From: an uncultured Dehalococcoidales bacterium
GTDB taxonomy: Bacteria; Chloroflexota; Dehalococcoidia; Dehalococcoidales; UBA2162
Assembly: GCA_964463875.1 (NCBI GenBank)
Contig: CAYXEG010000001.1
Span: 13,714 to 77,713, forward strand
Direction: 5' to 3'
DNA length: 64,000 nucleotides
Under the pieces are notes generated by a model. That model was given only the letters and a program-made list of their open reading frames with translations, made no database searches and was not told the DNA's origin. The translations under genes were made by a program, and so were the position numbers. Below, piece after piece: positions 5,407 to 30,074 of this stretch. How positions within the stretch are numbered: position 1 is the first letter of the stretch; every line of letters starts with the position of its first letter.

Positions 5407-6075
5407 ATGGCGAGTGACAAGTTTCCCGAAGGATGGATAGTTGTCGACCACGTCATCCCCGGAGTCACGGAAGAGATGATTGACTGGTGGTGGGTCAACA
5501 TGGAGAAGGGGTACGAATTGTGGTGCCCTGACGAACACAAGGGCTTCATCTGGGAAGTCAAGCCTCCTCTCGGCGGGCATATCGGAGCCGTTCAGATTGC
5601 TAAAGAGAGCATCGATTTCGGACCGGTCAGAGACCTTCGTATCGAATGGGTGGACCCGAACATCGGAACTCAGGAACAAAAAGATTTCTGGACCTACAGC
5701 CATCTGCTCGCTGCCGGCAGGCCGGCAACCGAGCCTGGCGGCATTGGGTTTGTCAATCTCTCTCATCAGTGGGAAGCAATTCCCGGGGGATGCAAAATGA
5801 GGTCCTGTATGCACGGCTTCCCCGGGGGACGACCGCCGGGACCCCCTCCGGGAGTACGTATGCCCCAACCTCCGCCCCAGGCAGCAGGGCAACATCCGAG
5901 CGGAAAGTCGCCGACCGGAGGCGGCTGGCATTCCCATAACATAGCTGAAGTAAGTACCTTCACGGCGTTTCTGCCGGCTCTCTGGGGAATTTGGCAGGCT
6001 GTACCTGATCCGACGATAAACCGGCAGGCTTCTCTGAAGATTAAAAAGGAAGGCTCGAAAATTATCTATATCTAA
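5407..6075 (+). CDS. Conserved hypothetical protein, tentatively DAPG/phloretin-hydrolase (PhlG)-family-like, with Pro/Gly-rich insert; paralogue of 23303..23998
   Basis: AAAGGAGGG SD. IPGVTEEMIDWWWVNMEKGYELWCPDEHKGF resembles, from memory, the PhlG-family ...MxDWWF...LWHPxDH block. The family assignment is unverified. The protein is shorter than PhlG. Confidence 0.45.
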   Translation: MASDKFPEGWIVVDHVIPGVTEEMIDWWWVNMEKGYELWCPDEHKGFIWEVKPPLGGHIGAVQIAKESIDFGPVRDLRIEWVDPNIGTQEQKDFWTYSHLLAAGRPATEPGGIGFVNLSHQWEAIPGGCKMRSCMHGFPGGRPPGPPPGVRMPQPPPQAAGQHPSGKSPTGGGWHSHNIAEVSTFTAFLPALWGIWQAVPDPTINRQASLKIKKEGSKIIYI

Positions 6076-6354
6076 TCAGCGCTACGGTAATCTTACAGCT
6101 GAAAGGGGGGTTGACTATAGCACGTACCGCAAAGAGATGAACATGACCACCTGTACCGTGATACCCTTCAATACCACTCGAGCAAAACTGAAAAGAAACG
6201 TCTTTTACTTCCGTGGAGACTAAACCCGAGAAAGACGGCGAAACCCGGCTCTGGCGGGTAATTCTGAAGCAAGACGAAGGAGAAACGATACTTTTAAACG
6301 AGCCCATACCGATAGAGAAACACCCGTAAAACCTTGAAAAACAGGAAGGGGAAT

Positions 6355-8166
6355 ATGAAAAAAAAGATTATCTATATTCTGGTAAGCTGCATCATGGTTC
6401 TATCGTCGCTGGTGGCAGCATCGTGTGAAAAGGAAGAGGTAGCGAAAGAGGAGGAAGAGGAAGGAAAGGTTGTCATAACCGATAAAACGTCACCGACTGA
6501 GGTAACAGAAGAAAAGAAAGAGGAAGCCAAGGTGTCGGATGTTCCGCAGTACGGTGGAACGGTAACCATCACAACCACTCAGGATATCCAAGGTTACGAT
6601 CATGCCAATTTCTCAAGAGGCTTTCTCAATAACGTGTACCTGGTCAATGACACAATGGGTGCCCCTGATTGGAGCAGAGGTTCAGCCGGCACCGGGGAAA
6701 TCGATTGGGCCAGTCCGAGTCAGAAGCGCATTGATTTCACTATCGGCGCCCTGGCGGAGAGCTTCGAAATCATCCCTCCGGGGACAATCATTTTTAATGT
6801 TCGCCAGGGGGTACACTACGCACTCACCGATACCGAAGCCAGCAAACTGGTGGGCGGACGCGAAATGACAGCCGAAGACGTTGCGTTTTCTCTGGACAGG
6901 CATATTCATGAACCGATGTCTTATTTAGCTTTTACTGATCCTACCATGCCGAAAAATACAACGGTAACGCAAACAGGTCCGTGGACCGTGCAGATAGACA
7001 CCGGTCAATTCAACCTGGACCCGCTATGGTTGATGCTTCCCGACCGCGAGATATGGCCGAAGGAACTCATCGAAAAGTATGGTACTATAAGCGAGTGGTA
7101 CCAACAGGTGGGTAATGGCCCGTTCATCATGACAGATAGTGTTGTCGGCAGTTCCGCCACTTTCGAAAGGAACCCGAACTACTGGATGACGGACCCAGTC
7201 GGTTCGGGCAAAGGCAACCAGTTGCCTTACTTTGACCGTGTTCAAATGCTAATCATTCCTGATGCCTCAAGTAGTCAGGCAGGTTTCCGTACAGGCAGAA
7301 TAGATCAACTAGGTGCCCAGAGCAACGACGCCGCAAAAACAATGATACAGACCGCGCCTCATGTCAAGTATACCAAATACCTGCAGGGGCCAAATTACAT
7401 TTCGATGAGACTTGATATCCCCGAACTGCCACACACGCAAAAAGAGGTACGCCAGGCGCTGATGATGGCGATTGATTACGAAGCAATCGTCAGAGACTGG
7501 TACAATGGCGAGGCAGAGATACTTGCCTGGCCGCTGGCATATTCCAAGGGGTATGCCAACGCCTATATGCCGCTGGAGGAAATGCCTCAAGCGGTGAAGG
7601 ATATCTATACCTATAACCCGGTAAAAGCAAAACAAATGATTTCGGACGCCGGCTATCCGAATGGCTTCAAGACTATGGTAACCTGTACATCAGATGCCGT
7701 CGATTTTCTCTCCATAATCGTAGATATGTGGGAAGATATTGACGTGGAATTGAAGCTCGATATCGTCGATTTTGGTCCTTACTACAACTACACGGCGTCC
7801 CGGAAATACCCGGAAATGCTTTACGGTTTCTACGTTCAGCCGGGACCCTACGCCCAGTTACTCCCCTTCAGAATCGATAATACGTTCAATCGAAGCTGGG
7901 TAAAAGATGCTACAGTCGATGCTGCCTACGAAGAGATTCTCAAGTACAACCTCATTGACCAGGCAAAAGTCGACCAAATACACCGGGAGTTGATGCCGTA
8001 CGTGCTGGAGCAGGCCTATTATATCACGGTACCCGGCCCCTATCTGTTCAACTTCTGGCAACCCTGGCTGAAGAACTATTACGGTGAGGTTCAAGTCGGT
8101 TACCAGCCTTACTGGGTACGCTTCTCATGGATAGACCAGAACCTCAAGAGGTCGCTTGGTTATTAA
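6355..8166 (+). CDS. Family-5 ABC substrate-binding lipoprotein (Glu-rich linker)
   Basis: The ATG at 6355 follows GGAAGGGG. Signal peptide plus lipobox LVAAS-C. Strong similarity to the 26162 paralogue (WSRGSAGTGEIDW..., WQPWLKNYYGE). Confidence 0.9.
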   Translation: MKKKIIYILVSCIMVLSSLVAASCEKEEVAKEEEEEGKVVITDKTSPTEVTEEKKEEAKVSDVPQYGGTVTITTTQDIQGYDHANFSRGFLNNVYLVNDTMGAPDWSRGSAGTGEIDWASPSQKRIDFTIGALAESFEIIPPGTIIFNVRQGVHYALTDTEASKLVGGREMTAEDVAFSLDRHIHEPMSYLAFTDPTMPKNTTVTQTGPWTVQIDTGQFNLDPLWLMLPDREIWPKELIEKYGTISEWYQQVGNGPFIMTDSVVGSSATFERNPNYWMTDPVGSGKGNQLPYFDRVQMLIIPDASSSQAGFRTGRIDQLGAQSNDAAKTMIQTAPHVKYTKYLQGPNYISMRLDIPELPHTQKEVRQALMMAIDYEAIVRDWYNGEAEILAWPLAYSKGYANAYMPLEEMPQAVKDIYTYNPVKAKQMISDAGYPNGFKTMVTCTSDAVDFLSIIVDMWEDIDVELKLDIVDFGPYYNYTASRKYPEMLYGFYVQPGPYAQLLPFRIDNTFNRSWVKDATVDAAYEEILKYNLIDQAKVDQIHRELMPYVLEQAYYITVPGPYLFNFWQPWLKNYYGEVQVGYQPYWVRFSWIDQNLKRSLGY

Positions 8167-8423: not shown

Positions 8424-9188
8424 ATGTTGAGCTTATTTGATTTGCGTGGTAAAACCGCTGTTGTCACCGGAGGAGCGGGAGGAATCGGCAAGGCGCTGGC
8501 TCTCGGCCTGGCGGAGGCCGGTGCTGATGTTGTCATTACCAGCCGGGGCATCGGTAAACTCAAGGAAGTAGAAGCGGAAATAAAAGCCACTGGAAGGAAA
8601 GCCCTGGCGATTTCCACGGACGTGACCGACGAAAAATCGGTTGCGGAGATGGTGGATACGGTGAAGAAAGCGTTTCCCCGCATCGATATCCTGGTGAACG
8701 GAGCGGGCGTGGCGATACGAAAACCGGCAGATACGTTTCCTATCGATGAATGGCAGCAGGTAATGGACGTCAATGTCCGGGGAACATTCCTGTGCTGCCA
8801 GGCAATCGGCAGATTGATGATTCAGCAGAAAGAGGGCAAAATCATCAATATTTCTTCGGTGAGAGGCCGCTACGGCCTGCCGGTAGGGTATGCGGCATAC
8901 TGTCCCAGCAAGGGGGCGGTTGATACGCTGACGCGCACCCTGGCGTGCGAATGGGCGAAACACAATGTACTGGTTAACGCCATAGCGCCGACGGTTGTTG
9001 AGACGGAACTGACGAAGGAACTGCTGGCCGACGTCGAATACGCAAAAACCATGAAAGCCCGTATCCCGATGGGGCGATGGGCTGTCACCGACGACCTGGT
9101 GGGGCCGTGCGTATTCTTCGCCTCGGGCGCCTCGAACTTTATCACCGGACAGGTTCTCTATATCGATGGCGGGGTCACCACCTGGTAG
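8424..9188 (+). CDS. Short-chain dehydrogenase/reductase (classical SDR)
   Basis: TGGAGGIGKA (TGxxxGxG), NISS, and Y-CPS-K (YxxxK). 254 aa. Confidence 0.9.
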   Translation: MLSLFDLRGKTAVVTGGAGGIGKALALGLAEAGADVVITSRGIGKLKEVEAEIKATGRKALAISTDVTDEKSVAEMVDTVKKAFPRIDILVNGAGVAIRKPADTFPIDEWQQVMDVNVRGTFLCCQAIGRLMIQQKEGKIINISSVRGRYGLPVGYAAYCPSKGAVDTLTRTLACEWAKHNVLVNAIAPTVVETELTKELLADVEYAKTMKARIPMGRWAVTDDLVGPCVFFASGASNFITGQVLYIDGGVTTW

Positions 9189-9243: not shown

Positions 9244-9582
9244 ATGAAGAAAGTGAAGCTCTCGGATGTCAAGCCGTACGCGGCTGCCGGACATTTTAAC
9301 ATGACCGCAATGCGGCTTCAGGGAAAAGAGGAGACCGGGATTCAGAAATTCTGGATGGGATTATCGTATTTTCTTCCCGGTGGAGGGGCCGGTTGGGCGT
9401 ATGAGGATTCACCCACGGAGAAAGTGTACCTTGTCCTCGAAGGCGAACTGACGGTCAAAAGTAAAACCGAAGAAGTGACGCTGGGCCCGATGGACTCGCT
9501 GTATCTTGCCCCGAATGAGGGAAGAGAAATTATCAACAAGACCAACAAGCCGGTGACCATGGTCGTCGTCGTCACCAGTTAG
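9244..9582 (+). CDS. Cupin-fold protein
   Basis: 112 aa with AAAGGAG SD. PGGGAGWAYEDSPTEKVYLVLEGEL...LYLAPNEGREIIN follows the cupin two-motif layout. The usual His ligands of motif 1 are not evident. Confidence 0.65.
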   Translation: MKKVKLSDVKPYAAAGHFNMTAMRLQGKEETGIQKFWMGLSYFLPGGGAGWAYEDSPTEKVYLVLEGELTVKSKTEEVTLGPMDSLYLAPNEGREIINKTNKPVTMVVVVTS

Positions 9583-9656: not shown

Positions 9657-10595
9657 ATGGGGAAAAAAGTATTTGTTGACCTTACGCATCCTTTCGGAGC
9701 AGAAATTCCACGCTGGCCGTATTTCGACAAGCCGATAATCGATAATGCGCATACGATGGCCAAAGGCGGTGTTCTGACGCAGAAGATTACCTGCACCATG
9801 CATACCGGGACTCACTGCGACGCTCCCCGGCATGTTATGGAAATCGAATTCGACGGCAAGAGAGCGCGGTATACCCACGAAATGCCGGTCGACGCCTATA
9901 CCGGCGAAGCAGTCTGCCTGCCAATCGAGATTGAACGCTGGGGGCTTATCATGCCGAAACACCTCGAAGCCGCCTGTGAAAAAGTCGGTATCAAGCCGAG
10001 CGAACTGGAAGGCATGGTCCTCTGCCTCAATACCGGCATGCACCGGAAATTCGACGATTCGAAAGAGTACTATCACTATTCCTGCGGTACCGGTATCGAC
10101 GCCGGCAGATGGTTTGTCGAGAAAAAGGTAAAATGCGTGGCGATGGATATGCAGGCGCTGGACCACCCGCTCCATACTGCCATGGGTAATAACGGCATGA
10201 CCCGCATGAACCTGATTGGCGCTTCCGGCTATCCTATCACCGAAGAATACACGCAGCAGTTCGGCGAAGAGGCTTATGCCGAGTTTGATAAGTTTACCTA
10301 TATCAAGGTACATGGTAAAGAAGCCTATGACAAGAAATTCGGCGATTTGGAAGCAATCGGCTGCTGGGGCACCTGGGAGCCCTGCCACAAGATGATGCTT
10401 GGGCATGGTATTGTCGGTGTTGAAAACCTCGGCGGCAACCTTGACAAGGTTACCGGCAAACGGTTCAGGTTTTACTGCTTCCCGCTCCGCTGGTACCTGG
10501 GCGATGGCTCGATGGCCCGGTGCGTCGCGGAAATCGACGAAGACAACTTGAATAACGTTCCTGACAGAACCTATACTTATGGCGGTGTTATCTAA
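9657..10595 (+). CDS. Cyclase-family (kynurenine-formamidase-like, PF04199-type) metal hydrolase
   Basis: MHTGTHCDAPRH matches the HxGTHxDxPxH family signature. AGGAGG SD. Confidence 0.8.
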   Translation: MGKKVFVDLTHPFGAEIPRWPYFDKPIIDNAHTMAKGGVLTQKITCTMHTGTHCDAPRHVMEIEFDGKRARYTHEMPVDAYTGEAVCLPIEIERWGLIMPKHLEAACEKVGIKPSELEGMVLCLNTGMHRKFDDSKEYYHYSCGTGIDAGRWFVEKKVKCVAMDMQALDHPLHTAMGNNGMTRMNLIGASGYPITEEYTQQFGEEAYAEFDKFTYIKVHGKEAYDKKFGDLEAIGCWGTWEPCHKMMLGHGIVGVENLGGNLDKVTGKRFRFYCFPLRWYLGDGSMARCVAEIDEDNLNNVPDRTYTYGGVI

Positions 10596-10681
10596 TATAC
10601 ATGTGCAGTAAATACGGTACTGCATTTCATACCCGGCAGGGTCAGGTAAAAAACGGGTAAATATGGTTGGCAGGTGAGAGA

Positions 10682-12052
10682 ATGAAAGACGGATATGTCA
10701 CCGAACAGGCTCAGGATGTAAAGATACTCACGGAAGCTGAGGTGGTGGTGGTAGGCGGGGGGCCGGGAGGCCATTCGGCGGCCATCGCTGCCGCGAGGAA
10801 CGGCGTAAAGACAGTTCTGGTCGAGAGGTACGGCCATCTCGGCGGAATGGCAACCGGCGGCATCGTTATCCAGATACCTCACATGAGCGACGGCGGCAGC
10901 GAACAGCAGATTGCCGGCTTGACACAGGAATGGATTGACCGGCTCGACTCCATCGGAGGGGTCCTTGTCCCGCGGCGCAGCCAGATAGGCTCAGCCGATG
11001 AAAAGCTGATTTCCTACTGGCGGCGATTCATGGGAAACGTCAACCGGGGAAGGATTGAATATACTGCCTGGGTCGACCCGGAACTCCTGAAATGCGTCCT
11101 GAACGATATGGTCGAGGAAGCCGGTGTCAAACTGCTTCTTCATTCCTGGGGTGTCAGGTCGATAGTCGAAGGCAACACGGTCAAAGGAGTGGTTTTCGAA
11201 AGCAAGTCCGGCCGGCAGGCCGTGACGGGCAAAGTAATTATCGACGGCACGGGGGACGGTGACCTGCTGCCCTCGGCCGGGGCGGCCTGGGAAGGCGGTT
11301 TCGACCCGACATCGAGAAGCTCGATGCTGGCGCTCGTATTCAGAATCGGGAACTGCGACTACCAGAAGTATTGTGATTTCCGGGAAACAAACCCCGAGAA
11401 ATCCCAGGAACTTTCGAAGGCGATGACTGATTTGGTCGGGACGAGGCTTGTCCCGCTTCCTTCACCCCGCAACGATGTGATGTGGGTTAATAACTGGATT
11501 CCGAATCTCGATAACCTGAACGTCGAGCACCTGACCGAGCTGGAAGTGAGCATGCGGAGGATGATGCGAAAGGGACATGACTTCCTGAAGAAGAACATCC
11601 CGGGCTTCGAAAACAGCTTTATCCTCGATACTGCCTCGCAGACCGGCACGCGCGGGGGAAGGCGCGTTATGGGAGAGGTCAGAATCACTCACGACGATTT
11701 GAGAAACGCCACGAAGTACGAAGATACTATCGCTGTATTCCCGAAAATGGGTCCGCCGAACGAGGAAACCGGCGGTAAATATACTTTTATACCCTACCGG
11801 TGCGTAGTGCCGGAAAAGACGGAGGGGCTGCTTGTTGCCGGGCGGAGTTTCTCGTCCGACGGGGCGGCTAACAACATGGCAAACCTGATTCCCCACTGCA
11901 TCGCAATAGGTCAGGCGGCCGGTACCGCCGCAGCGCTCTCGGTAAAGGAAGGAATACAACCCAGGAAGGTGGATTACCGTACCTTGCAGAAGGCACTGCT
12001 GAAGCAGAATGTACCGCTTCCGGGCGTGGATTTAGCTGAAGCCAGGGTGTAA
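10682..12052 (+). CDS. FAD-dependent oxidoreductase (PF12831-like); paralogue of 17887..19155
   Basis: VVVVGGGPGGHSAAIAAARNG...ERYGHLGGMATGG dinucleotide fold. C-terminal GRSFSSDGAANNMANLIPHCIAIGQAAG. The ATG at 10682 follows GGTGAGAG; the track start at 10667 is TTG. Confidence 0.8.
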   Translation: MKDGYVTEQAQDVKILTEAEVVVVGGGPGGHSAAIAAARNGVKTVLVERYGHLGGMATGGIVIQIPHMSDGGSEQQIAGLTQEWIDRLDSIGGVLVPRRSQIGSADEKLISYWRRFMGNVNRGRIEYTAWVDPELLKCVLNDMVEEAGVKLLLHSWGVRSIVEGNTVKGVVFESKSGRQAVTGKVIIDGTGDGDLLPSAGAAWEGGFDPTSRSSMLALVFRIGNCDYQKYCDFRETNPEKSQELSKAMTDLVGTRLVPLPSPRNDVMWVNNWIPNLDNLNVEHLTELEVSMRRMMRKGHDFLKKNIPGFENSFILDTASQTGTRGGRRVMGEVRITHDDLRNATKYEDTIAVFPKMGPPNEETGGKYTFIPYRCVVPEKTEGLLVAGRSFSSDGAANNMANLIPHCIAIGQAAGTAAALSVKEGIQPRKVDYRTLQKALLKQNVPLPGVDLAEARV

Positions 12053-17886: not shown

Positions 17887-19155
17887 TTACGATAGTTCAA
17901 CTCCCTGGGCGACTAGCCTTTTCTGTAATGACTTGATATCTACTTTACGCGGCAGGACATTACTCTTCACTGCGAGGGCAGCCGCGGTTCCGGCCGCCTG
18001 TCCCATTTGAATACAGTGCGAGATGACGTTGAACATCGAATTCGCTTCCTGGTCGGATGAGAAACACCTCCCGGCGGCAAGCAGCCCTTCCAGTTTGGCC
18101 GGTACCAGGCAGCGGTACGGCATGGCGATATTCACTGCCGGGCCGTCGGTGATGGGCCAGCTCAATGGTACCCCATGGGGGAATATCAAAACCGTGTCGT
18201 CGTACTTCTTTTTAGCTTTAATTTCATCCAGTGTCAGGATGTGCTCGCCGACGAGGCGGCGGCTGCCGCGCGTGCCGATTTGTGAGGCGCTATCATAGAT
18301 ATAGCTGTTTTCAAAACCGGGAACAGCCTGTTTGTAATAAGAATGGAGAGGTACCATTGTTTTCCGGACGTTCGTTTCCACCCAGGTGAGGTCCTCGACA
18401 TTTAGACAGTTTTTACCACGAATAAAGTTGTTGACCCAGAAAACATCCTGGCGCTGGGCAGGCACCGGGGCAATATGGAATCCGGCGAGTTTGAACCCTT
18501 CCTCCCTCATTTTCACCCAGCTGCCCGGTTCCGCCTTGCGAAACTCGGCAAACTTGTCGAAGTTGATGCCGCCGATGCGGAAGACCATGGCCATTTCGGA
18601 GGTACGGTACCCTTTATCCAGCGAGGCATCGAAATCGGCGCCGGCGGAAGCAAAAATGTCGCCGTCACCGGTAGCATCGATGACGACTTTCCCCATCACC
18701 GCGTTGCGCCCCGATTTACTCTCGAAGATGACACCTTTGACGGTGTTATTCTCAACCACAGCCCGGCAGGACCAGGAGTGCAGGAGAAGCTTTACGCCGG
18801 CTTCGAGGGCCATGTCGTTCAGGGCACATTTCAACAGTTCCGGGTCTACCATGAAAGTACGATTCCATTCCGGCTCTTTTGTTTTCGAGAGGTCATGGAG
18901 ACCGTTAACTTTGTTGAGTCTGTCAATCCATTCCTGTCCCTGGCCGAAAGCAGGGTTGAACATGAGTACCAGGCCGCCTGTCGCCATGCCGCCGAGATGG
19001 CCGTACCTTTCCATCAGAATCGTATCGGCGCCTTCGCGGGCGGCAGTGATGGCGGCAGTCACACCTGCCGGGCCGGCCCCGACGACAACGACATCCGCTT
19101 CTGCCAGGACATTGATATCACGAGCTTCTTCACGAACAGTAGTACCCTTTCCCAT
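17887..19155 (-). CDS. FAD-dependent oxidoreductase (PF12831-like); first gene of the BCR/HAD-like operon
   Basis: VVVVGAGPAGVTAAITAAREG...ERYGHLGGMATGG and GRCFSSDQEANSMFNVISHCIQMGQAAG. By eye roughly half the residues match the 10682 paralogue. Confidence 0.8.
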   Translation of the reverse strand: MGKGTTVREEARDINVLAEADVVVVGAGPAGVTAAITAAREGADTILMERYGHLGGMATGGLVLMFNPAFGQGQEWIDRLNKVNGLHDLSKTKEPEWNRTFMVDPELLKCALNDMALEAGVKLLLHSWSCRAVVENNTVKGVIFESKSGRNAVMGKVVIDATGDGDIFASAGADFDASLDKGYRTSEMAMVFRIGGINFDKFAEFRKAEPGSWVKMREEGFKLAGFHIAPVPAQRQDVFWVNNFIRGKNCLNVEDLTWVETNVRKTMVPLHSYYKQAVPGFENSYIYDSASQIGTRGSRRLVGEHILTLDEIKAKKKYDDTVLIFPHGVPLSWPITDGPAVNIAMPYRCLVPAKLEGLLAAGRCFSSDQEANSMFNVISHCIQMGQAAGTAAALAVKSNVLPRKVDIKSLQKRLVAQGVELS

Positions 19156-22544: not shown

Positions 22545-23051
22545 TTACCCCGCACGCTTTTCAGGGAGCGCATTGTTTTCCCGGGCTTTCTGCAGGAACG
22601 GCGGTACGTAATTCAGTCCGAGTAACGACCTCGTATGACCCCGCAGTTTTTCAAGAAGCCCGGTAAGCTGTTCTTTTTCCTTTTCGGTGAGGACATCGAA
22701 AATCAGCACGATGGCATGTTCGGTGATGGTATTGTTATATAATTCCCGTCCTTTATCGGTCACGATAACATATGTTTTGTTTTCTCCCGGGATTCTTACT
22801 TTTTCTACCAGTTCGTTTTTTTGCATTCTGTCGACCAGCGTGGTGACTGAATTTAGTTCTTTAACGGAAGATTCGGCAAGCTGGTTAAGGGTTAACATTT
22901 CAACACTTTTCACGAGCATGTGCAATACTTTCACTTGGGATTGACTGATATTGTATTGCGCGAGTTCAAGTTTAACGGCTCGTTGAATCGTTTCATTCGT
23001 TGAATGAAGCAGGGCTTGCAGTTCGATTCGCGGATCATCCATTTTTGACAT
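22545..23051 (-). CDS. MarR-family transcriptional regulator; paralogue of 38734..39204
   Basis: 168 aa. Winged-helix region LTLNQLAESSVKELNSVTTLVDRMQKNELVEKVR. Divergent from the 23303 gene. Confidence 0.85.
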   Translation of the reverse strand: MSKMDDPRIELQALLHSTNETIQRAVKLELAQYNISQSQVKVLHMLVKSVEMLTLNQLAESSVKELNSVTTLVDRMQKNELVEKVRIPGENKTYVIVTDKGRELYNNTITEHAIVLIFDVLTEKEKEQLTGLLEKLRGHTRSLLGLNYVPPFLQKARENNALPEKRAG

Positions 23052-23128: not shown

Positions 23129-23157
23129 TTGACATCCGTTATCTTAATGTGTTATAC
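23129..23157 (+). promoter_or_regulatory. sigma70-type promoter for 23303 operon
   Basis: TTGACA (23129-23134), 17-nt spacer, TTATAC (23152-23157). Confidence 0.5.
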
Positions 23158-23179
23158 ATGACTTCATATTGGAAGTCAA
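23151..23179 (-). promoter_or_regulatory. sigma70-type promoter for the MarR gene; its -10 overlaps the opposite promoter's -10
   Basis: On the minus strand: TTGACT (23179-23174), 17-nt spacer, TATAAC (23156-23151). Confidence 0.45.
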
Positions 23180-23190
23180 ATACATAATGA

Positions 23191-23218
23191 AATATGATGT
23201 TATCGAAGATATCATATT
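23191..23218. promoter_or_regulatory. Candidate operator AATATGAT-N12-ATCATATT
   Basis: Perfect 8-bp inverted arms at 23191-23198 and 23211-23218. Same half-site as at 5311-5359 and 19304-19338. Confidence 0.45.
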
Positions 23219-23302: not shown

Positions 23303-23998
23303 ATGGAAGAAGGAAAATATCCGATAGGTTGGGCAGTTGTCGATCATGTCATTCCCGGCGTTACTCCGGAGATGATTGACTGGTGGTGGGTCAACATGGA
23401 AAAAGGGTACGAATTATGGTGCCCTGACGAACACAAAGGCTTCACCTGGGAAGTCAAACCTCCTCTCGGCGGGCATATCGGAGCCATACAGATTGCCAAA
23501 GAAAGCATCGATTATGGCCCGGTGATGGATCTTAGAATCGAGTGGGTCGACCCGAACCTGGGAACCCAGGAACAGAAGGATTTCTGGACATATGAACATC
23601 TCCTTACTGCCGGTGGAGGCCCTCCCGGAATGCCAAAGGGAGTAATGCTATCTCACCAGTGGGAAGCAATTCCGGGGGGATGTAAAATGCGTTCCTGCAT
23701 GCATGGTATGGCAGGTGGATCTGGACCACGGCCGCCACAGGGACCGCCTCCCGGAGCCAGGCAGGGTCCGCCTCCCGGTCCGCCTCCCGGTTTTGTGATG
23801 CCTCCTCATCCGAGCGGCAAGAAACCGACCGGTGGTGGGTGGAGCGCTCATAACGTTTCTGAAGCCAGTACATTTAAAAATTTCCTGCCGGCTCTCTGGG
23901 GAATCTGGCAGGCTGTTACTGACCCGGCAATCAATCGCCAGGCTTCTCTGAGGGTTAAGAAGGAAGGCTCCAAGATAATCTATATCGACCAGAGGTAA
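23303..23998 (+). CDS. Conserved hypothetical protein, tentatively DAPG/phloretin-hydrolase-family-like, with Pro/Gly-rich insert; paralogue of 5407..6075
   Basis: Long blocks are identical to 5407 at protein and DNA level (EMIDWWWVNMEKGYELWCPDEHKGF, PPLGGHIGA, SHQWEAIPGGCKMRSCMHG, FLPALWGIWQAV). Confidence 0.45.
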   Translation: MEEGKYPIGWAVVDHVIPGVTPEMIDWWWVNMEKGYELWCPDEHKGFTWEVKPPLGGHIGAIQIAKESIDYGPVMDLRIEWVDPNLGTQEQKDFWTYEHLLTAGGGPPGMPKGVMLSHQWEAIPGGCKMRSCMHGMAGGSGPRPPQGPPPGARQGPPPGPPPGFVMPPHPSGKKPTGGGWSAHNVSEASTFKNFLPALWGIWQAVTDPAINRQASLRVKKEGSKIIYIDQR

Positions 23999-24020
23999 AA
24001 AACCTGTAAAGGGGGAAATC

Positions 24021-24263
24021 ATGGAAGCGGAAAAAATGAGATGGGTCAAGGAAATCAAAATAGACCTTGATACTTGCAAGGGATGCAAAACCTGCGTTAA
24101 TGCCTGCTTCGTCGATGTAATTCGCTGGAATGCTGAAACGAAGAAACCTGTTGTTGCTTACTCGGAAGATTGCGTCTGGTGTCTGGCGTGTGAAGCAGGC
24201 TGCCCGGTCAGCGCAATAGAAGTAATACCAATCATTCCGGCACCATTACGAGTATCGTTTTAA
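24021..24263 (+). CDS. 2x[4Fe-4S] ferredoxin
   Basis: 80 aa with CKGCKTCVNAC and CVWCLACEAGCP cluster motifs. Confidence 0.9.
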   Translation: MEAEKMRWVKEIKIDLDTCKGCKTCVNACFVDVIRWNAETKKPVVAYSEDCVWCLACEAGCPVSAIEVIPIIPAPLRVSF

Positions 24264-24314
24264 CGACAGTGTGTCACTGGCAGTCATTCAAGAATAAAAG
24301 ACAGGAGGTCCAAG

Positions 24315-26132
24315 GTGACCGAAATGGGAAAAACTGGAGAAGTAATATCGACTGATGTCCTTATTATCGGTGGCGGCGTGGGAGGCCTCGCAGCCGCGAT
24401 AAAAGCAAAAGAAGCGTATCCAGATATCGATGTGCTCATGGTAGACAAGCAGACTATCGGATGGGCAGGGAAAGCAACGAAAATCGGAGGGTTTCTAGCG
24501 TTTCTCGCCAAAGACGGCAACCCTGACAAATTCATCGATTTTCAGGTTAGAAATGCCGGTTACTATATTAACGACCAGAATGCTTTGAAAAAATATGTCA
24601 ATAGTACCTACTCGGCGGTAGAGCTCCTTGCTGAATGGGGAGCAAATGTTGCCAGAACACCTGACGGTAAAGTACTGGCAATCCCCAATTCCTTTGCTCC
24701 TGAGTATTCGATGACGTTTGTCGACATTGATTTGATGCAGCCGATGATGAAAAGAGCAAAGAAACTCGGTGTACGGATGCAGAATAAAACCCACATTGTC
24801 GATCTGCTTGTTAAAGATAACAGGGTAACCGGCGCGGTTGGTTTTGACATAACTGACGGTAGTTTCATGACTTTTAAGTCAAAATCAACTATTATCGCTA
24901 ACGGCAGTTGCGGGTATAAAGTCCGTCGATTCTGGGTTGCCGGCACCGGTGACGGGATTTCTGCCGCCTACCGGGCTGGTGCAGAAATGCGTAACGCGGA
25001 ATACGGCAATCTTTACGGGCATGTGGTGATGAAGGATTTGGATGGCGGCAATGCAGGCACCATGACCCTTGTAAATTCACTCGGAGAAAACATTGCCAAC
25101 AAGTACATGCCCAACATGGGGCCTGCGGGTGTCTTCCTTCCTGTCAAACTGGGAGTCGGACTGGAAATGGAAGTCAACGCAGGACGGGGTCCGATTCGTT
25201 CCCAGCCGTCTCAGGCGGGACCGGGCGGGCCAGGCGGACCGGGAGGACCGGGTGGACCGGGCGGGACGGGTAGACCAGGTGGTGGACCGGGCGGACCGGG
25301 TGGGCCAGGTGGACCTGGCGGACCAGGCGGGCCAGGCGGAGGGGGTAGGCCAAGTGGCGGTGGTGGTTTTGGCCTTCCAAAACTGAACGCATGGAACAAG
25401 ATGATGGGTGAGAAAGCCAGTAAATACGGGCCGTCGGTTCCGAACCAGGAAATCGCTGTCCCGCTGCACGGTGAACTCTCCTGCATTCGTGTCGATGAAA
25501 ATATGAAAACCACTCTCGATGGCTTATGGGCAATCGGAGATACGAGTTACGCCGGTTCAGCTATTGCCGGGGCAGTTGCATCTCCTCCGGGAGTGACTCC
25601 TGGTTCCGGTGTCATGTACGCAGTGATAAGCGGGACATGGGCCGGACCTGAGGCTGCCCGCTTGGCGGCTTCGGTATCGGCTTCAACCGGGAGCGCGGAT
25701 GACATCAATCTGTTAAAGCAACGGATATACGCTCCGATGAGTAACAAAGGAAGCTACTCGCCGTGGGAAGCAATCTCCAGGCTGCAGGATGCTGTCGCAC
25801 CGATGAAGTACAGTCTGCGCCGAAATAAAGAAAGATTAGCGGAAGCTCTGTCAATTGTTCTTTCCGTTAAAGAAAGACTACCGGAACTTGCTGCAAACGA
25901 TTTCCATTACCTGAGTAAATGCCATGAAGTCATCAGTATGACGGCCTGTGCGGAAATCACTTTTACTGCAGCAGCGACAAGAGAAGAAAGCCGGGGGTTC
26001 GCCTATCGTGAGGATTACCCGGAACAGGATGACAAAAACTGGCTGCAGTGGATTATCCTCAGGCAGGGTAAAGGCAAGATAGAAGTTTCGAAAGAACCTG
26101 TACCAATCGAGAAATATAACGTACGACCTTAA
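24315..26132 (+). CDS. FAD flavoprotein of the fumarate reductase / succinate dehydrogenase / APS-reductase alpha superfamily, with 50-aa Gly-Pro insert
   Basis: GTG lies 6 nt after AGGAGG. VLIIGGGVGGLAAA. The C-terminal ESRGFAYREDYPEQDDKNW resembles the ESRGAHxRxDxPxxDDxNW signature but lacks the His. Confidence 0.8.
   Translation: MTEMGKTGEVISTDVLIIGGGVGGLAAAIKAKEAYPDIDVLMVDKQTIGWAGKATKIGGFLAFLAKDGNPDKFIDFQVRNAGYYINDQNALKKYVNSTYSAVELLAEWGANVARTPDGKVLAIPNSFAPEYSMTFVDIDLMQPMMKRAKKLGVRMQNKTHIVDLLVKDNRVTGAVGFDITDGSFMTFKSKSTIIANGSCGYKVRRFWVAGTGDGISAAYRAGAEMRNAEYGNLYGHVVMKDLDGGNAGTMTLVNSLGENIANKYMPNMGPAGVFLPVKLGVGLEMEVNAGRGPIRSQPSQAGPGGPGGPGGPGGPGGTGRPGGGPGGPGGPGGPGGPGGPGGGGRPSGGGGFGLPKLNAWNKMMGEKASKYGPSVPNQEIAVPLHGELSCIRVDENMKTTLDGLWAIGDTSYAGSAIAGAVASPPGVTPGSGVMYAVISGTWAGPEAARLAASVSASTGSADDINLLKQRIYAPMSNKGSYSPWEAISRLQDAVAPMKYSLRRNKERLAEALSIVLSVKERLPELAANDFHYLSKCHEVISMTACAEITFTAAATREESRGFAYREDYPEQDDKNWLQWIILRQGKGKIEVSKEPVPIEKYNVRP
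25218..25367 (+). repeat. Coding low-complexity (Gly-Pro-Gly)n tract inside the flavoprotein gene
   Basis: GPGGPGGPGGPGGPGGTGRPGGGPGGPGGPGGPGGPGGPGGGGRPSGGGG. Codons vary synonymously (gga ccg ggc / ggg cca ggc / gga cct ggc). Confidence 0.95.
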
Positions 26133-26161: not shown

Positions 26162-27991
26162 ATGAAAAAACTGACTTGGCTACTACTTACATCCGTCATG
26201 GTGGTAACGCTGGTTCTCACATCATGTACTCAGGGAACGAGTGAAACAAAACAACCGACGACAGACACGTCGAGTGATAAACCTGTGGTTACAACGACGA
26301 CTACATCTACCACGACGACAACGACTACAACAACCGGGACAACTGAAGAGAAGGAACCGCAGTATGGCGGAACCATGAATATGATGACGAACATGGACTA
26401 CCAGGGTTTTGACCATGGTATGTATCCGGCAGGATTCCTCAATCACGTATATCTGGCGAATGACACGCTCCTGTCCGGTGACTGGTCGAGAGGCGCTGCC
26501 GGTACCGGGGAAATCGACTGGGCGCTGAGCAGTCAGAAGAGAATTGAATATACCATCGGTGAACTCGCGGAGAGTTTCGAAATCAGAGAACCCGGTACGA
26601 TAGCTTTCACCGTCCGTAGGGGTGTTTACTTCGCACTTAATCCGGACAGTGAAGCCAGCCGACTGGTTAACGGGAGAGAGATGACCGTTGATGACGTACT
26701 CTTTTCTCTGAATCGGCACATCACCTCGCCGATGTCGTATATGCGTATAACCCGACCGACCCTGCATCTGACAACGACTGTTACGCAGGAAGGTGATCGA
26801 ACGGTAGTCGTGACAACCTCGATTGATAACTTTGACGCGCTCTGGTTGTTAATCGGTGAACGTGAAATCTGGCCTAGGGAAGTAATCGAAACATACGGCA
26901 ACGTGACCGACTGGCGTAATATGGTAGGCACTGGTCCCTATGTGTTGACCGACTATGTCCAGGGCAGTGCCGGCGTATTTGAAAAAAATACCAATTACTG
27001 GCAGACTGATCCCGTCGGTACGGGAAAAGGAAACCGGTTACCTTACCTGGATGGTATACGGATGCTGATAATCACTGATGTGTCTACTCAACTGGCAGCG
27101 TTACGCTCCGGTAAAGTGGACCAGTTAAGCAACCTTTCCTATGACAGTTACAGCGACCTGATGAGAACCAGCCCTAATCTCCAGTATCACCAGTTTGTAG
27201 CCGGGCCAAATGCAATATCGATGAGGCAGGACAAAGCCGACTTACCATTCAGCGATGTCCGAGTACGGCAGGCTCTGATGATGGCCATCGACTATGACGA
27301 AATAATAGAGTCTTACTTCAGCGGTCAAGCCGAAAAACTTGCCTGGCCGTTAGCGAATATCAAGGGATACGATAATGCCTATATGCCTCTGGAAGAGATG
27401 CCCGCCTCGGTACAGGAATTATTCTCCTATAACCCGGAAAAAGCAAAACAGTTGATGATAGCGGCAGGGTACCCGGATGGATTCAAAACCAAAATCGCTG
27501 TTCAGTCAACTGATTCGGGTGCGGTTGAGTACCTGTCCATAGTCAAAAATATGTGGGAACAAATCAATGTTGACCTTTCTCTTGATTTACTTGAGACCGG
27601 GACCTTTTTCAATATGACGATGAGTAAACAGTACGACGAATTTCTCTACGGATTTTTCGTGCAGCCCGGACCGTATGCCCAGTTAACACCTTTCGCCGAA
27701 GAGAGCACCTTTAATCGAAGCTGGGTAAACGACACAAGAGCAAAAGAGACTTATGAAGAAATTCTGAAATACAATCTCATCGACCAGGCAAAAGTAGACG
27801 AATTACATAGAGAAATCATGCCATACGTGTTAGAGCAGGCATGGTACATCCCCAGCCCGGGCGCCTATGTTTATAACTTCTGGCAGCCGTGGTTGAAAAA
27901 CTACTATGGCGAAGGCTTGATTGGCTACAAACCAGCCTGGGTTCGTTATGCCTGGATTGACCAGGATTTGAAGCAGAAAAGCTTAAACTAG
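26162..27991 (+). CDS. Family-5 ABC substrate-binding lipoprotein (poly-Thr linker)
   Basis: Signal peptide plus lipobox LTS-C, then a T-rich linker. Close paralogue of 6355..8166. Confidence 0.9.
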   Translation: MKKLTWLLLTSVMVVTLVLTSCTQGTSETKQPTTDTSSDKPVVTTTTTSTTTTTTTTTGTTEEKEPQYGGTMNMMTNMDYQGFDHGMYPAGFLNHVYLANDTLLSGDWSRGAAGTGEIDWALSSQKRIEYTIGELAESFEIREPGTIAFTVRRGVYFALNPDSEASRLVNGREMTVDDVLFSLNRHITSPMSYMRITRPTLHLTTTVTQEGDRTVVVTTSIDNFDALWLLIGEREIWPREVIETYGNVTDWRNMVGTGPYVLTDYVQGSAGVFEKNTNYWQTDPVGTGKGNRLPYLDGIRMLIITDVSTQLAALRSGKVDQLSNLSYDSYSDLMRTSPNLQYHQFVAGPNAISMRQDKADLPFSDVRVRQALMMAIDYDEIIESYFSGQAEKLAWPLANIKGYDNAYMPLEEMPASVQELFSYNPEKAKQLMIAAGYPDGFKTKIAVQSTDSGAVEYLSIVKNMWEQINVDLSLDLLETGTFFNMTMSKQYDEFLYGFFVQPGPYAQLTPFAEESTFNRSWVNDTRAKETYEEILKYNLIDQAKVDELHREIMPYVLEQAWYIPSPGAYVYNFWQPWLKNYYGEGLIGYKPAWVRYAWIDQDLKQKSLN

Positions 27992-28118: not shown

Positions 28119-30074
28119 ATGAAAGAAGCTATCTGGAACCCCACTCAGGAACGTATACGGGAAGCCAACGTATCCCGGTTTATTACCCTGGTAAACGAGC
28201 GGTTCGGGCTGAAACTGAGCACGTACAACGACCTGCAAAAATGGTCGGTCGCCCATATACCGGAATTCTGGAGCCTGATATGGGAGTTCGGAGAAGTGAA
28301 GGCTTCGGTCCCGTATGAGACAGCGGTGACCGGGTTAAACGATATGCTCGGCGTGACGTGGTTTCCCGGCGCCAGGTTTAATTTCGCGGAAAATCTGCTC
28401 AGGTACCGTGACGAGCGAACGGCGCTCGTTTTCAAGGGCGAGGGCCAGACGAAGGCACGGCGAATCACCTATGCCGAACTTTACGCTCAGGTTTCCCGAT
28501 TGGCAATAGCTCTCGCCCGGGCCGGTGTGGTTACCGGAGACCGGGTGGCCGGATTTCTGCCGAATATGATTGAAACGGTTGTTGCCATGCTGGCGACCAC
28601 CAGTCTTGGCGCGATATGGTCGTCCTGCTCGCCGGATTTCGGGATAAAGGGTATGCTCGACCGTTTCCAGCAGATTGCTCCGAAGGTACTCTTTACTGCC
28701 AATGCCTATGTCTACAACGGAAAAACACACGATTCGCTCGAACGCGTTGCAGCCGCCACGGCTGAAATACCGTCAATCGAGAAAGTAATCGTCATCCCGT
28801 ATACCGAAGCATCCCCGGATGTAAGCAGGCTGCCGGGGGCAGTCCTGTTCAACGATTTCATTGCCGGCATCGAGCTGTCCGAAATATCCTTCGAACAATT
28901 ACCGTTCGACCACCCGATTTACATCGTTTATTCTTCCGGAACAACCGATAAACCGAAGTGCGTTGTACACCGGGCAGGTGGCATCCTCCTTCAGCACTTG
29001 AAGGAACTGATGCTCAATGCCGATTTGAAACGGGAAGATACCATCTTTTACTTCACGACCTGCGGCTGGGTGATGTGGAACTGGCTGGTAAGTTCGTTGA
29101 CTCAGGGGGCAACCCTCGTTCTCTACGACGGCTCGCCGTTTGCCTCGGAAAACACTGTTCTTCTCGAGCTGGTTCAGAACGAAAAAGCCACTATATGGGG
29201 AACCAGCCCGAAGTACCTCTCCACGATAGAGCGGGCCGGTCTCAAGCCGGCGGCCGGTTATGACCTCAGCCATCTGAAAACGATGATATCGACCGGTTCG
29301 CCGCTGATGGAGGAAAATTACCGGTACGTTTACCGGGATATCAAATCGGATGTGTTCCTGAACAACATCTCGGGCGGGACCGAAGCGATTGCCTGTTTCG
29401 GTATCGGCAACCCAATCAGCCCGATATATTGCGAGGAGATGCAGGGTCTCGGCCTGGCCATGGACGTCAGGGTATTCGATGAAAACGGTGATTCGCTCAT
29501 CGAACAGGAAGGCGAACTGGTATGTGCCCGGCCTTTCCCCTCGATGCCGCTGCGTTTCTGGAATGACGAGAACGGGCAGCGATACCGGGAAACCTATTTT
29601 TCGATGTATCCCAACATCTGGAGGCACGGCGATTTTGCGAAGATAACGGAAAACGGCGGGCTGGTTATCAGCGGCCGTTCTGACGCCACCCTGAAACCCG
29701 GTGGGGTCAGGATAGGGACAGCCGAGATTTACCGGCAGGTAGAAACGGTTAGCGAAGTCCAGGACAGCCTTGTTGTCGGGCAGAACTGGGATAACGATGT
29801 CCGTATCATTCTTTTCGTTAAAATGAAGGAAGGAAATGAATTCGGCCAGGGGCTCGTTCAGAAACTGAAAACCGTTATCAGGAATAACGCCTCTCCCCGT
29901 CATGTTCCTGCTATAATAATCCCGGTGGCCGATATTCCCTACACCATCAACGGAAAAAAAGTTGAACTGGCGGTACGAAATATCATACACGGATTACCGG
30001 TCCAGAACCGGGACGCCCTGGCGAACCCGGATTCGCTGGATTTATATAAAAACCTTGAAGAACTCAAGTCATAA
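28119..30074 (+). CDS. Acetoacetyl-CoA synthetase (acetoacetate--CoA ligase)
   Basis: 651 aa. The N-terminus ...WNPTQERIREANVSRFI...LQKWSVAHIPEFWSLIW is typical of AACS. YSSGTTDKPK is the AMP-binding motif. ...GKKVELAVRNI tail. Confidence 0.8.
   Translation: MKEAIWNPTQERIREANVSRFITLVNERFGLKLSTYNDLQKWSVAHIPEFWSLIWEFGEVKASVPYETAVTGLNDMLGVTWFPGARFNFAENLLRYRDERTALVFKGEGQTKARRITYAELYAQVSRLAIALARAGVVTGDRVAGFLPNMIETVVAMLATTSLGAIWSSCSPDFGIKGMLDRFQQIAPKVLFTANAYVYNGKTHDSLERVAAATAEIPSIEKVIVIPYTEASPDVSRLPGAVLFNDFIAGIELSEISFEQLPFDHPIYIVYSSGTTDKPKCVVHRAGGILLQHLKELMLNADLKREDTIFYFTTCGWVMWNWLVSSLTQGATLVLYDGSPFASENTVLLELVQNEKATIWGTSPKYLSTIERAGLKPAAGYDLSHLKTMISTGSPLMEENYRYVYRDIKSDVFLNNISGGTEAIACFGIGNPISPIYCEEMQGLGLAMDVRVFDENGDSLIEQEGELVCARPFPSMPLRFWNDENGQRYRETYFSMYPNIWRHGDFAKITENGGLVISGRSDATLKPGGVRIGTAEIYRQVETVSEVQDSLVVGQNWDNDVRIILFVKMKEGNEFGQGLVQKLKTVIRNNASPRHVPAIIIPVADIPYTINGKKVELAVRNIIHGLPVQNRDALANPDSLDLYKNLEELKS

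Follow-up and report, generated by a model that had tools for sequence, protein, structure and literature searches.

A co-conserved hydrolase, ferredoxin and flavoprotein gene triad in an uncultured Dehalococcoidales bacterium and its possible role in anaerobic polyphenol breakdown

The window analysed here is a stretch of 64,000 nucleotides from an uncultured Dehalococcoidales bacterium (contig CAYXEG010000001.1 of a 3.1 Mb, 95% complete assembly), and our subject is a triad of genes at 23303-26132 which encode a putative short zinc C-C hydrolase of the PhlG/phloretin hydrolase (Phy) type, a 2x[4Fe-4S] ferredoxin and an FAD flavoprotein. We have found that hydrolase, ferredoxin and flavoprotein form a real unit that is co-conserved across phyla. 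The novel element of this unit is the joining of an AprAB/FrdAB-style flavoenzyme to a Phy/PhlG hydrolase; in the literature searched no characterisation of such a pairing was found, nor any paper on a ferredoxin and an SdhA-like flavoprotein beside Phy/PhlG genes. We propose, giving it about an even chance of being right, that the module couples a ferredoxin-driven reduction to a retro-Claisen C-C hydrolysis, making and then splitting an acylphloroglucinol-type ketone with release of phloroglucinol and an acid. Anaerobic polyphenol breakdown governs carbon release from peat and sediment and shapes the bioactive flavonoid metabolites of the gut, and to our knowledge several of its reductive and ring-cleaving steps are without known genes. 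The module is common in anaerobes of peat, aquifer, sediment, rumen and gut; if the proposal is true, the annotation of the family would change across many genomes and a ferredoxin-dependent route would join polyphenol catabolism.

The triad and its conservation across phyla

The hydrolase gene (23303-23998, 231 amino acids, Pfam DAPG_hydrolase) is followed on the + strand, after a gap of 22 nt, by the ferredoxin gene (24021-24263, 80 amino acids, Fer4 models and two CxxCxxCxxxC motifs) and, after a further 51 nt, by the flavoprotein gene (24315-26132, 605 amino acids, FAD_binding_2 and Succ_DH_flav_C), so that the three tightly spaced open reading frames (ORFs) reported in an initial annotation of this DNA were confirmed. 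Shine-Dalgarno sites precede all three starts (AGGAG, GGGGG and AGGAGG, in gene order), and the flavoprotein begins at a GTG from which its N-terminus aligns with the N-termini of its homologues. No terminator-like sites were found between the triad genes on the + strand.

A locus scan with one genome per species returned 80 loci (related loci carry L-numbers below), which are hosted by Dehalococcoidales, Desulfatiglandales, Desulfobacterales, Actinomycetota, Acidobacteriota, Spirochaetes and Bacillota, the last including Alkalibacter mobilis, Clostridium spp., Sporobacter termitidis, Parasporobacterium and rumen Lachnospiraceae and Oscillospiraceae. Of the 76 assessable loci, 72 (in at least six phyla) have a frame for a di-cluster ferredoxin that stops no more than 450 nt before the flavoprotein, and a PhlG-family match adjoins the flavoprotein on the same strand in at least 56 of 64 loci, from Chloroflexota, Thermodesulfobacteriota, Actinomycetota, Acidobacteriota, Spirochaetota and Bacillota, with a gene order that varies by clade. 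It had been left to further work whether the three genes are co-conserved elsewhere, and these counts answer that they are. The flavoprotein family itself is present in only 4 of 251 sampled Dehalococcoidia genomes.

The loci fall into three architectures. In Chloroflexota (including the window), Thermodesulfobacteriota and Actinomycetota a short hydrolase precedes the ferredoxin and the flavoprotein, and in Firmicutes a canonical hydrolase takes its place (Pfam E 1e-79 for an example from Clostridium). In 15 loci of Acidobacteriota and Spirochaetes a canonical DAPG hydrolase and a ferredoxin are accompanied by a flavoprotein that is fused to a short hydrolase domain. This domain lies in frame at the flavoprotein C-terminus, giving ORFs of 738-751 amino acids in 14 loci, while the 15th runs off its contig. 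The fused proteins form a single clade in the tree, and the fusion was therefore probably one event. That it has been kept across diverged lineages with its zinc ligands intact is the strongest argument for joint action of the reductase and the hydrolase.

A second complete triad is found in the window's own genome (contig C28, 13154-15813), with a hydrolase of 204 amino acids, which has a Tyr at the position of the ligand His44, a ferredoxin of 70 amino acids and a flavoprotein about 40-44% identical to that of the window. It is followed by a carboxylesterase-like ORF and an ORF with N-terminal resemblance to uroporphyrinogen decarboxylase (URO-D). Two modules in tandem were seen at 346-8701 of L013, a metagenome-assembled genome (MAG) of the Deltaproteobacteria: one consists of ferredoxin, flavoprotein (37% identical), a canonical PhlG-like gene and an Old Yellow Enzyme (OYE) type enoate reductase, and the other of a TetR gene, short hydrolase, ferredoxin, flavoprotein (57%) and a 135-amino-acid protein that has an N-terminal hydrophobic segment and no Pfam family. 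The locus of another Dehalococcoidales genome (L003, CP070832, 5545-9449) is degenerate, with an intact flavoprotein, a ferredoxin fragment, no hydrolase and a substrate-binding protein split in two; two URO-D-type genes lie upstream.

Family placement and conserved residues

The window hydrolase matches Pfam PF18089 (DAPG_hydrolase) at E 3.7e-11, with 43.4 bits against 22.7 and over model positions 33-222 of 223; no NCBIfam match was found for it, and the canonical hydrolases of related loci reach only 62-102 bits against NF047887, whose cut-off is 600. The short form, of about 216-231 amino acids, lacks the N-terminal ~75 residues of canonical enzymes. A Pro/Gly-rich insert at residues ~137-156 (about 23700-23830) is predicted to be disordered; the paralogue described below also has a low-complexity insert rich in Gly and Pro (5800-5900). 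When short forms, flavoprotein-fused domains and canonical DAPG hydrolases of 270-300 amino acids from related loci were aligned, H44, H118, H183 and E187 were invariant and E67 nearly so. The profile of the hydrolase family matches Phy 5xe5 (E 1.7e-30) and PhlG 3hwp (E 2e-23), and H44, E67, H183 and E187 align with PhlG His129, Glu160, His270 and Glu274 (3hwp SEQRES numbering minus the 8-residue tag), which we take to be the zinc ligands. The four ligand columns and H118 are kept in 14 of 14 fused, 22 of 22 canonical and at least 36 of 38 short sequences, the short-form exceptions being two with Gln at E67 and two that are gapped at H183/E187. The AlphaFold2 (AF2) model of the hydrolase (pLDDT 82.7) retrieved 5xey, 5xe5 and 3hwp as top Foldseek matches (probability 1.00, TM about 0.5), followed by Bet v 1/START/aromatase-cyclase folds. 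Like Phy (Eubacterium ramulus; M. abscessus 5xe5) and PhlG (3hwp), the short form has the DAPG_hydrolase domain, a Bet v 1-like fold and the four zinc-ligand positions, and presumably performs a retro-Claisen cleavage beside a polyhydroxylated ring; unlike them, it is short, carries the Pro/Gly-rich insert, is only 15-22% identical to the solved enzymes and is encoded with, or fused to, a reductase. By alignment and model it is a trimmed but probably active member of the PhlG/Phy family.

In the flavoprotein, the FAD fold and the C-terminal signature of the fumarate reductase/adenylylsulfate (APS) reductase family, which the initial annotation had reported, were both recovered by Pfam (FAD_binding_2, E 2e-24; Succ_DH_flav_C, E 4e-18). 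The NCBIfam models for Sdh/Frd, NadB, TfrA and AprA also match the protein, all far under their cut-offs: the best, NF006131, gives 164 bits against 587, TIGR01812 gives 142 against 567, the Sdh/Frd/NadB models as a whole fall 3- to 10-fold short, and the aprA model TIGR02061 gives 84 bits against 641.75, where 869-956 bits are reached by true AprA proteins of other genomes. Among solved structures the flavoprotein comes closest to the alpha subunit of phosphoadenylylsulfate (PAPS) reductase from Methanothermococcus thermolithotrophicus (8a8o_A, profile E 2.7e-40) and to the AprA of Archaeoglobus fulgidus (1jnr). More than 380 homologues with 55-77% identity occur in metagenomes, most of them under the name 'succinate dehydrogenase/fumarate reductase flavoprotein' or 'FAD-binding protein'. 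The phylogeny for which the initial annotation had called was run as a maximum-likelihood tree of 31 family members and a set of references (four true AprA, two SdhA, E. coli FrdA, an aspartate-oxidase-like protein and two further paralogues from the window's genome); the AprA references came from Desulfatiglandales and Desulfobacterales genomes, and none were found in the control genomes. The family formed one clade (SH-aLRT 99) within the SdhA/AprA superfamily, on the AprA side of the Sdh/Frd/NadB root and on long stems, and by this phylogenetic measure it is distinct from AprA and from Sdh/Frd/NadB.

The residues of E. coli FrdA were mapped by a MAFFT alignment, with numbering that counts Met1. 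His45, to which FAD is covalently bound, corresponds to Gly52 (an alignment by hidden Markov model (HMM) to SdhA 6lum gives Trp50), the catalytic His233 to Tyr234, the cap-domain pair Thr245/Glu246 to a gap, the proton donor Arg288 to a Pro, and the carboxylate-binding Arg391 to Ala420; the catalytic His356 is matched by His385, which is kept only in the window's clade. The family is thus without three of the four catalytic residues of fumarate reductase and without the His for covalent FAD, and fumarate/succinate chemistry was excluded for the flavoprotein because these residues are absent. Two candidate assignments, of the ESRG Arg to FrdA R390 and of EGRG to the proton-donor Arg, were both refuted by the E. 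coli FrdA alignment. With FrdA/SdhA and L-aspartate oxidase the flavoprotein has in common the superfamily, the domain order, the C-terminal ESRG...R.D.P..D..W motif and, presumably, hydride transfer to a C=C or C-X bond; it differs from FrdA/SdhA in lacking the covalent-FAD His, the cap Thr/Glu, the proton-donor Arg, the carboxylate-binding Arg and an FrdB/SdhB partner.

In the 1jnr and 8a8o alignments, which were read by eye, AprA N74, W234 and H398 fall on Leu61, Trp207 and His385, and R265 aligns with His236 only by ungapped extension of the printed alignment; in A. fulgidus AprA these four (N74, R265, H398, W234) are presumably residues of the APS site. AprAB and PAPS reductase resemble the triad in their FAD_binding_2 and helical C-terminal domains, in the lack of the SdhA flavinylation His, in the adjacent gene for a small 2x[4Fe-4S] partner and in several AprA-type residues. 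Unlike them, the window flavoprotein is only ~25% identical, lies far under the aprA cut-off and in a separate clade, appears not to keep the APS-binding Asn and Arg (from the printed alignment), and is linked to a plain 80-amino-acid ferredoxin and a PhlG-type hydrolase, not to sulfur genes. A Gly/Pro-rich insert at residues ~300-350 (25218-25367) lies between the EGRGP and GLPKL motifs, in a loop that measures 0 to ~60 residues in relatives and is among the longest in the window and in L005. The AF2 model of the flavoprotein, built on a 29-sequence alignment, had a pLDDT of 58.9 and was set aside for fold search and residue mapping in favour of sequence alignments.

The initial annotation had argued from an Ala at the His position of ESRGAH against fumarate or succinate chemistry. 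The segment ESRGFAYREDYPEQDDKNW spans flavoprotein residues 558-576 and does have the Ala there (the window reads ESRGFAY), while a 29-sequence alignment of close relatives gives the consensus ESRGFHFREDFP, and all 28 sequences besides the window's have His; the consensus of the family is ESRGFH. The observed Ala and the conclusion against fumarate chemistry both stand, and the view of the motif as an active site does not, since the FrdA catalytic residues are elsewhere and ESRGxH sits outside them, within the helical domain at the C-terminus. There are also relatives in which the His is naturally absent: in the wider family the position holds His, or Phe in a Firmicutes clade, Tyr is likewise among the relatives' residues, and AprA has Tyr. 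Only two sequences have the Ala, that of the window and that of L005. The two loci are orthologous and syntenic, agreeing in ~90% of nucleotides over 15 kb, and the L005 flavoprotein is 95% identical and carries the window's other unusual substitutions and the Gly/Pro-rich insert as well. Comparison with L005 gave dN/dS values of 0.028 (hydrolase), 0.054 (ferredoxin) and 0.068 (flavoprotein), from which the triad genes are judged to be under strong purifying selection and the window copy to be functional. On this comparison the motif Ala is a tolerated lineage-specific change and no active-site feature. A reading of the window flavoprotein as a pseudogene, suggested by 13 deviations from the consensus (the most of the set), was rejected, as the orthologue shares the deviations and dN/dS is 0.068.

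The ferredoxin carries the motifs CKGCKTCVNAC and CVWCLACEAGCP and matches Fer4 family models; in the PDB it comes closest to polyferredoxins and PsaC, and not to AprB. We infer that this 80-amino-acid protein is the dedicated electron-transfer partner of the flavoprotein, comparable to AprB or to the beta subunit of PAPS reductase; its likening to the small Fe-S partner in AprAB was a fair analogy, with 8a8o and 1jnr as the closest solved relatives of the flavoprotein.

Proposed function and competing explanations

The gene anatomy, family placement, zinc ligands, co-conservation, fusion and purifying selection described above are directly supported; the formation of a complex, the direction of electron flow, the order of the two reactions and the class of substrate are what we infer in the following scheme. 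Electrons from a low-potential donor would pass through the two clusters of the ferredoxin to FAD, as in AprAB. The flavoprotein, as the catalytic reductase with non-covalent FAD, would carry out a two-electron reduction of a substrate derived from plant polyphenols, possibly a compound, unsaturated or heterocyclic, from which an o-hydroxyaryl ketone would arise, such as one of the chalcone, flavanone or isoflavanone type. The short PhlG/Phy-type Zn hydrolase would then cleave the product of the reductase by a retro-Claisen reaction, probably within one complex, and release phloroglucinol or a close analogue together with an organic acid. The ring might pass to the neighbouring short-chain dehydrogenase/reductase (SDR), cyclase and cupin genes and to acetoacetate-CoA ligase, and the acid to the CoA-transferase, beta-oxidation and BCR/HAD-like genes of the surrounding island.

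The SDR (8424-9188), cupin (9244-9582) and cyclase-family protein (9657-10595), all on the + strand and assigned by Pfam, are by their sequences a candidate phloroglucinol reductase and ring-opening set. It was established that phloroglucinol reductase (PGR) belongs to the SDR family and dihydrophloroglucinol cyclohydrolase (DPGC) to the cyclase family (PMC10470551). The proposed scheme resembles the Fcr (EnoR) and Phy pair of E. ramulus and the PGR-DPGC-TfD-TAL pathway of Clostridium scatologenes (PMC10470551) in its reduction, its C-C hydrolysis to phloroglucinol, its SDR and its ring opening by a cyclase, and, as in the anaerobic flavonoid/phloroglucinol pathway, SDR, cyclase and acetoacetate-handling genes adjoin the triad. 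It differs in that Fcr (EnoR) is an NADH-dependent OYE-type enzyme whereas the triad reductase is a ferredoxin-linked flavoprotein of the AprA/SdhA superfamily, in that no BKACE-type TAL lies near the triad in the window or in annotated related loci, and in that a CoA-transferase and a second SDR are found instead in many loci of Dehalococcoidales.

Several observations weigh against this proposal. Among 10 module-bearing genomes, 5 have a close homologue of the cyclase and 5 do not, the best cyclase identity being 40% in G001 (7.6 Mb) and 47% in G005, with none in G003; of the five genomes without it, two also have no adjacent hydrolase and one locus looks decayed. The G003 locus, which holds an SDR fragment and a transposase, may be decayed. 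The window SDR as a phloroglucinol reductase found no backing from PDB and NCBIfam, which give generic matches of the gluconate/KduD type. The ferredoxin is of a generic kind and might be a free carrier instead of a bound subunit, and the paralogous hydrolase (5407) has survived with no reductase beside it. Residues Y234, H236 and H385, invariant in the window's clade, are not kept in other clades, and therefore substrates may differ between clades. The flavoprotein family, moreover, has no characterised member, and sequence alone names no substrate.

A different division of labour, the main competitor but one which we consider doubtful, would have the flavoprotein with its ferredoxin dearomatise a phenol beyond the reducing power of NAD(P)H, and the PhlG-like domain open the resulting cyclic 1,3-dione by retro-Claisen cleavage; the substrate would be of the resorcinol type, or phloroglucinol itself with the flavoprotein as a non-homologous replacement of the SDR, and 5-oxohexanoate-type acids would be delivered to the CoA ligase and beta-oxidation. 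A resorcinol reductase has indeed been described as ferredoxin-dependent (PMC10470551). A fusion of reductase and hydrolase would suit a thermodynamically pulled dearomatisation, enzymes of the PhlG family cleave beta-diketones, reductase and hydrolase mirror the SDR and cyclase pair of the same loci, and some module-bearing genomes are without a close DPGC-type cyclase. We take resorcinol reductase to be an FAD enzyme and know of no gene identified for it; its purified subunit was presumably about 50 kDa, against 61-66 kDa for the flavoproteins here. The known PhlG/Phy enzymes, however, cut exocyclic acyl groups and not rings, canonical Phy-like genes are part of the acidobacterial and Firmicutes modules, the compounds for which E. 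ramulus is known are flavonoids and not resorcinol, and the ABC or major facilitator superfamily (MFS) importers of these loci would be needless for small neutral phenols. It is also rather unlikely that the short PhlG-like protein serves the reductase as a Bet v 1-fold subunit for substrate binding or scaffolding, leaving the cleavage to canonical Phy-like enzymes where these are present. Such a role would accord with the acidobacterial loci, which hold a canonical DAPG hydrolase as well as the fused short domain, with the Firmicutes modules, which hold the canonical form only, with the missing ~75 residues and 43-bit Pfam score of the short form, and with the Tyr at the His44 position in the C28 copy. 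It is opposed by the retention of the zinc-ligand positions and H118 in at least 36 of 38 short and 14 of 14 fused domains, by a hydrolase dN/dS of 0.028, and by the modules of Dehalococcoidales, Desulfatiglandales and Actinomycetota that have no other PhlG-family gene nearby; the window's genome has only three PhlG-like genes, all of the short form.

Two further readings start from the relatives of the flavoprotein. That it is an AprAB- or PAPS-reductase-like enzyme releasing sulfite from a sulfate ester or sulfonate, such as a sulfated phenol, would explain why 8a8o (profile E 2.7e-40) and 1jnr are the closest solved structures, why a small 2x[4Fe-4S] partner is present and why features are held in common with AprA (no covalent-FAD His, P293, E379, H531, and W207 as the equivalent of AprA W234). 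We regard it as very improbable, since TIGR02061 gives 84 bits against 641.75, AprA N74 and R265 align with Leu and His (in the printed alignment), a long stem sets the family apart as a clade of its own, and the neighbourhood has a constant PhlG-type partner and no sulfur-metabolism genes; no aprA homologue was found in the window's genome at E <= 1e-20. A variant of fumarate reductase/succinate dehydrogenase or of L-aspartate oxidase, as the source annotations ('succinate dehydrogenase/fumarate reductase flavoprotein subunit'), the two Pfam domains and the ESRG motif might suggest, has next to no probability: FrdA H45, H233, T245/E246, R288 and R391 are replaced by Gly, Tyr, a gap, Pro and Ala with only H356 kept, the Sdh/Frd/NadB scores are 3- to 10-fold under the cut-offs, there is neither an FrdB-type three-cluster partner nor a membrane anchor, and the clade is separate.

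Returning to the proposed coupling of ferredoxin-driven reduction and retro-Claisen hydrolysis, we tentatively suggest that the module might be a self-contained reductive C-C hydrolase, in which a flavoenzyme powered by ferredoxin would be physically coupled to a zinc hydrolase of Bet v 1 fold, for a step of the resorcinol or isoflavone/flavonoid route that, we believe, still has no known genes. This step could be that of the ferredoxin-dependent resorcinol reductase and the 1,3-cyclohexanedione hydrolase of fermenting clostridia; another candidate is the reductive opening of the C-ring with cleavage, by a route of the O-desmethylangolensin type, in E. ramulus and in sediment and peat anaerobes. 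E. ramulus is a culturable flavonoid degrader that has the module, which brings a direct biochemical test within reach. In its operon (E. ramulus-type gut contigs L096/L097, 940-7744) a LysR gene is accompanied by a DAPG hydrolase, ferredoxin, flavoprotein, NMO-like flavoprotein, MFS transporter and a second DAPG hydrolase; the hydrolases have 272 and 247 amino acids and the 'FAD-binding protein' 553, with 34% identity to that of the window. The E. ramulus set comprises WP_129899693, the ferredoxin and WP_129899691. Because NCBI names neither hydrolase 'phloretin hydrolase', both are probably distinct from the characterised Phy.

The paralogous locus and the surrounding genes

The window holds a paralogous locus on the + strand in which an intact short PhlG-like hydrolase (5407-6075, 222 amino acids, Pfam E 5.5e-12) keeps the zinc-ligand columns; it is 72% identical to the hydrolase at 23303-23998, with a dN/dS of 0.12 between the two. 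That ferredoxin and flavoprotein are missing here was confirmed, as no ORF lies in the spacer (6076-6333) before the paralogous family-5 substrate-binding protein (6334-8166, 55% identical to that at 26162-27991). The initial annotation had left it undecided whether one locus gained or the other lost the redox pair, and a comparison of the spacer with the pair decides for loss: a frameshifted relic of the last ~80 flavoprotein codons was detected at 6089-6326 (+ strand) by tblastn and the family HMM. In tblastn, flavoprotein residues 562-601 match 6204-6323 with 16 of 40 identities and a stop directly before the substrate-binding protein gene, as in the intact locus, and the HMM matches in two collinear frames, model positions 484-527 at 6089-6220 (4.8 bits) and 522-561 at 6204-6323 (15.2 bits), where the best of 200 shuffles reached 5.2 bits. 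Judged by this decayed 3' end, an L001-like operon lost its ferredoxin gene and ~480 flavoprotein codons by deletion.

Upstream of the triad a divergent gene on the - strand (22545-23051) encodes a 168-amino-acid regulator of the MarR family (Pfam E 4e-5, 23.9 bits, slightly under the 24.6-bit gathering cut-off), and a MarR gene adjoins the triad in many Dehalococcoidales loci. A candidate promoter/operator region on the + strand (23129-23218) comprises TTGACA at 23129-23134 and an 8-nt inverted repeat, AATATGAT/ATCATATT, at 23191-23198 and 23211-23218, an arrangement that is only consistent with a regulated promoter beside the MarR gene. Promoter-like matches in the region number 11, where 8.2 +/- 2.7 would be expected by chance, and the assertion that the three genes lie behind one promoter is not established. 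Directly downstream of the triad lies the gene of a family-5 ABC substrate-binding lipoprotein (SBP; 26162-27991, + strand, Pfam SBP_bac_5, E 1e-55), which holds the same place in L001, L005, L006, L009 and L029, and then that of an acetoacetate-CoA ligase (28119-30074, + strand, NCBIfam TIGR01217, 888 bits against a cut-off of 520.9).

The window as a whole is a catabolic island, with four family-III CoA-transferases, two acyl-CoA dehydrogenases (ACADs), a crotonase, a thiolase-like protein and a BcrAD/HGD-D system. The order MarR, triad, SBP, SDR, cyclase and cupin is found in L001, L006, L009 and L061, with an acetoacetate-CoA-ligase-like gene after the cupin in L001, L006 and L009, and in many other Dehalococcoidales loci a set of SDR, cyclase, cupin, CoA-transferase and SDR lies divergently beside the triad. 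In Clostridium sp. CF012 one stretch holds an SDR, cyclase, sigma-54 activator, Phy-like gene, ferredoxin, flavoprotein and OYE enoate reductase. No curated family model exists for the cyclase; the window protein was compared with those of L001, L006, L014, L023, L025, L036, L079 and L082 and is 78-97% identical across Chloroflexota, Bacillota, Actinomycetota and Thermodesulfobacteriota. A second type of cyclase, only 42-44% identical, occupies the same position at other loci. Paralogous FAD_oxidored proteins (PF12831) at 10667-12052 and 17887-19155 flank the SDR-cupin-cyclase set and the BcrAD/HGD-D operon, and a homologue follows the flavoprotein in L030. A 476-amino-acid ORF of the window (3214-4644), with no Pfam family and no PDB match, has homologues of 30-59% identity near the triad in L027, L029 and L061.

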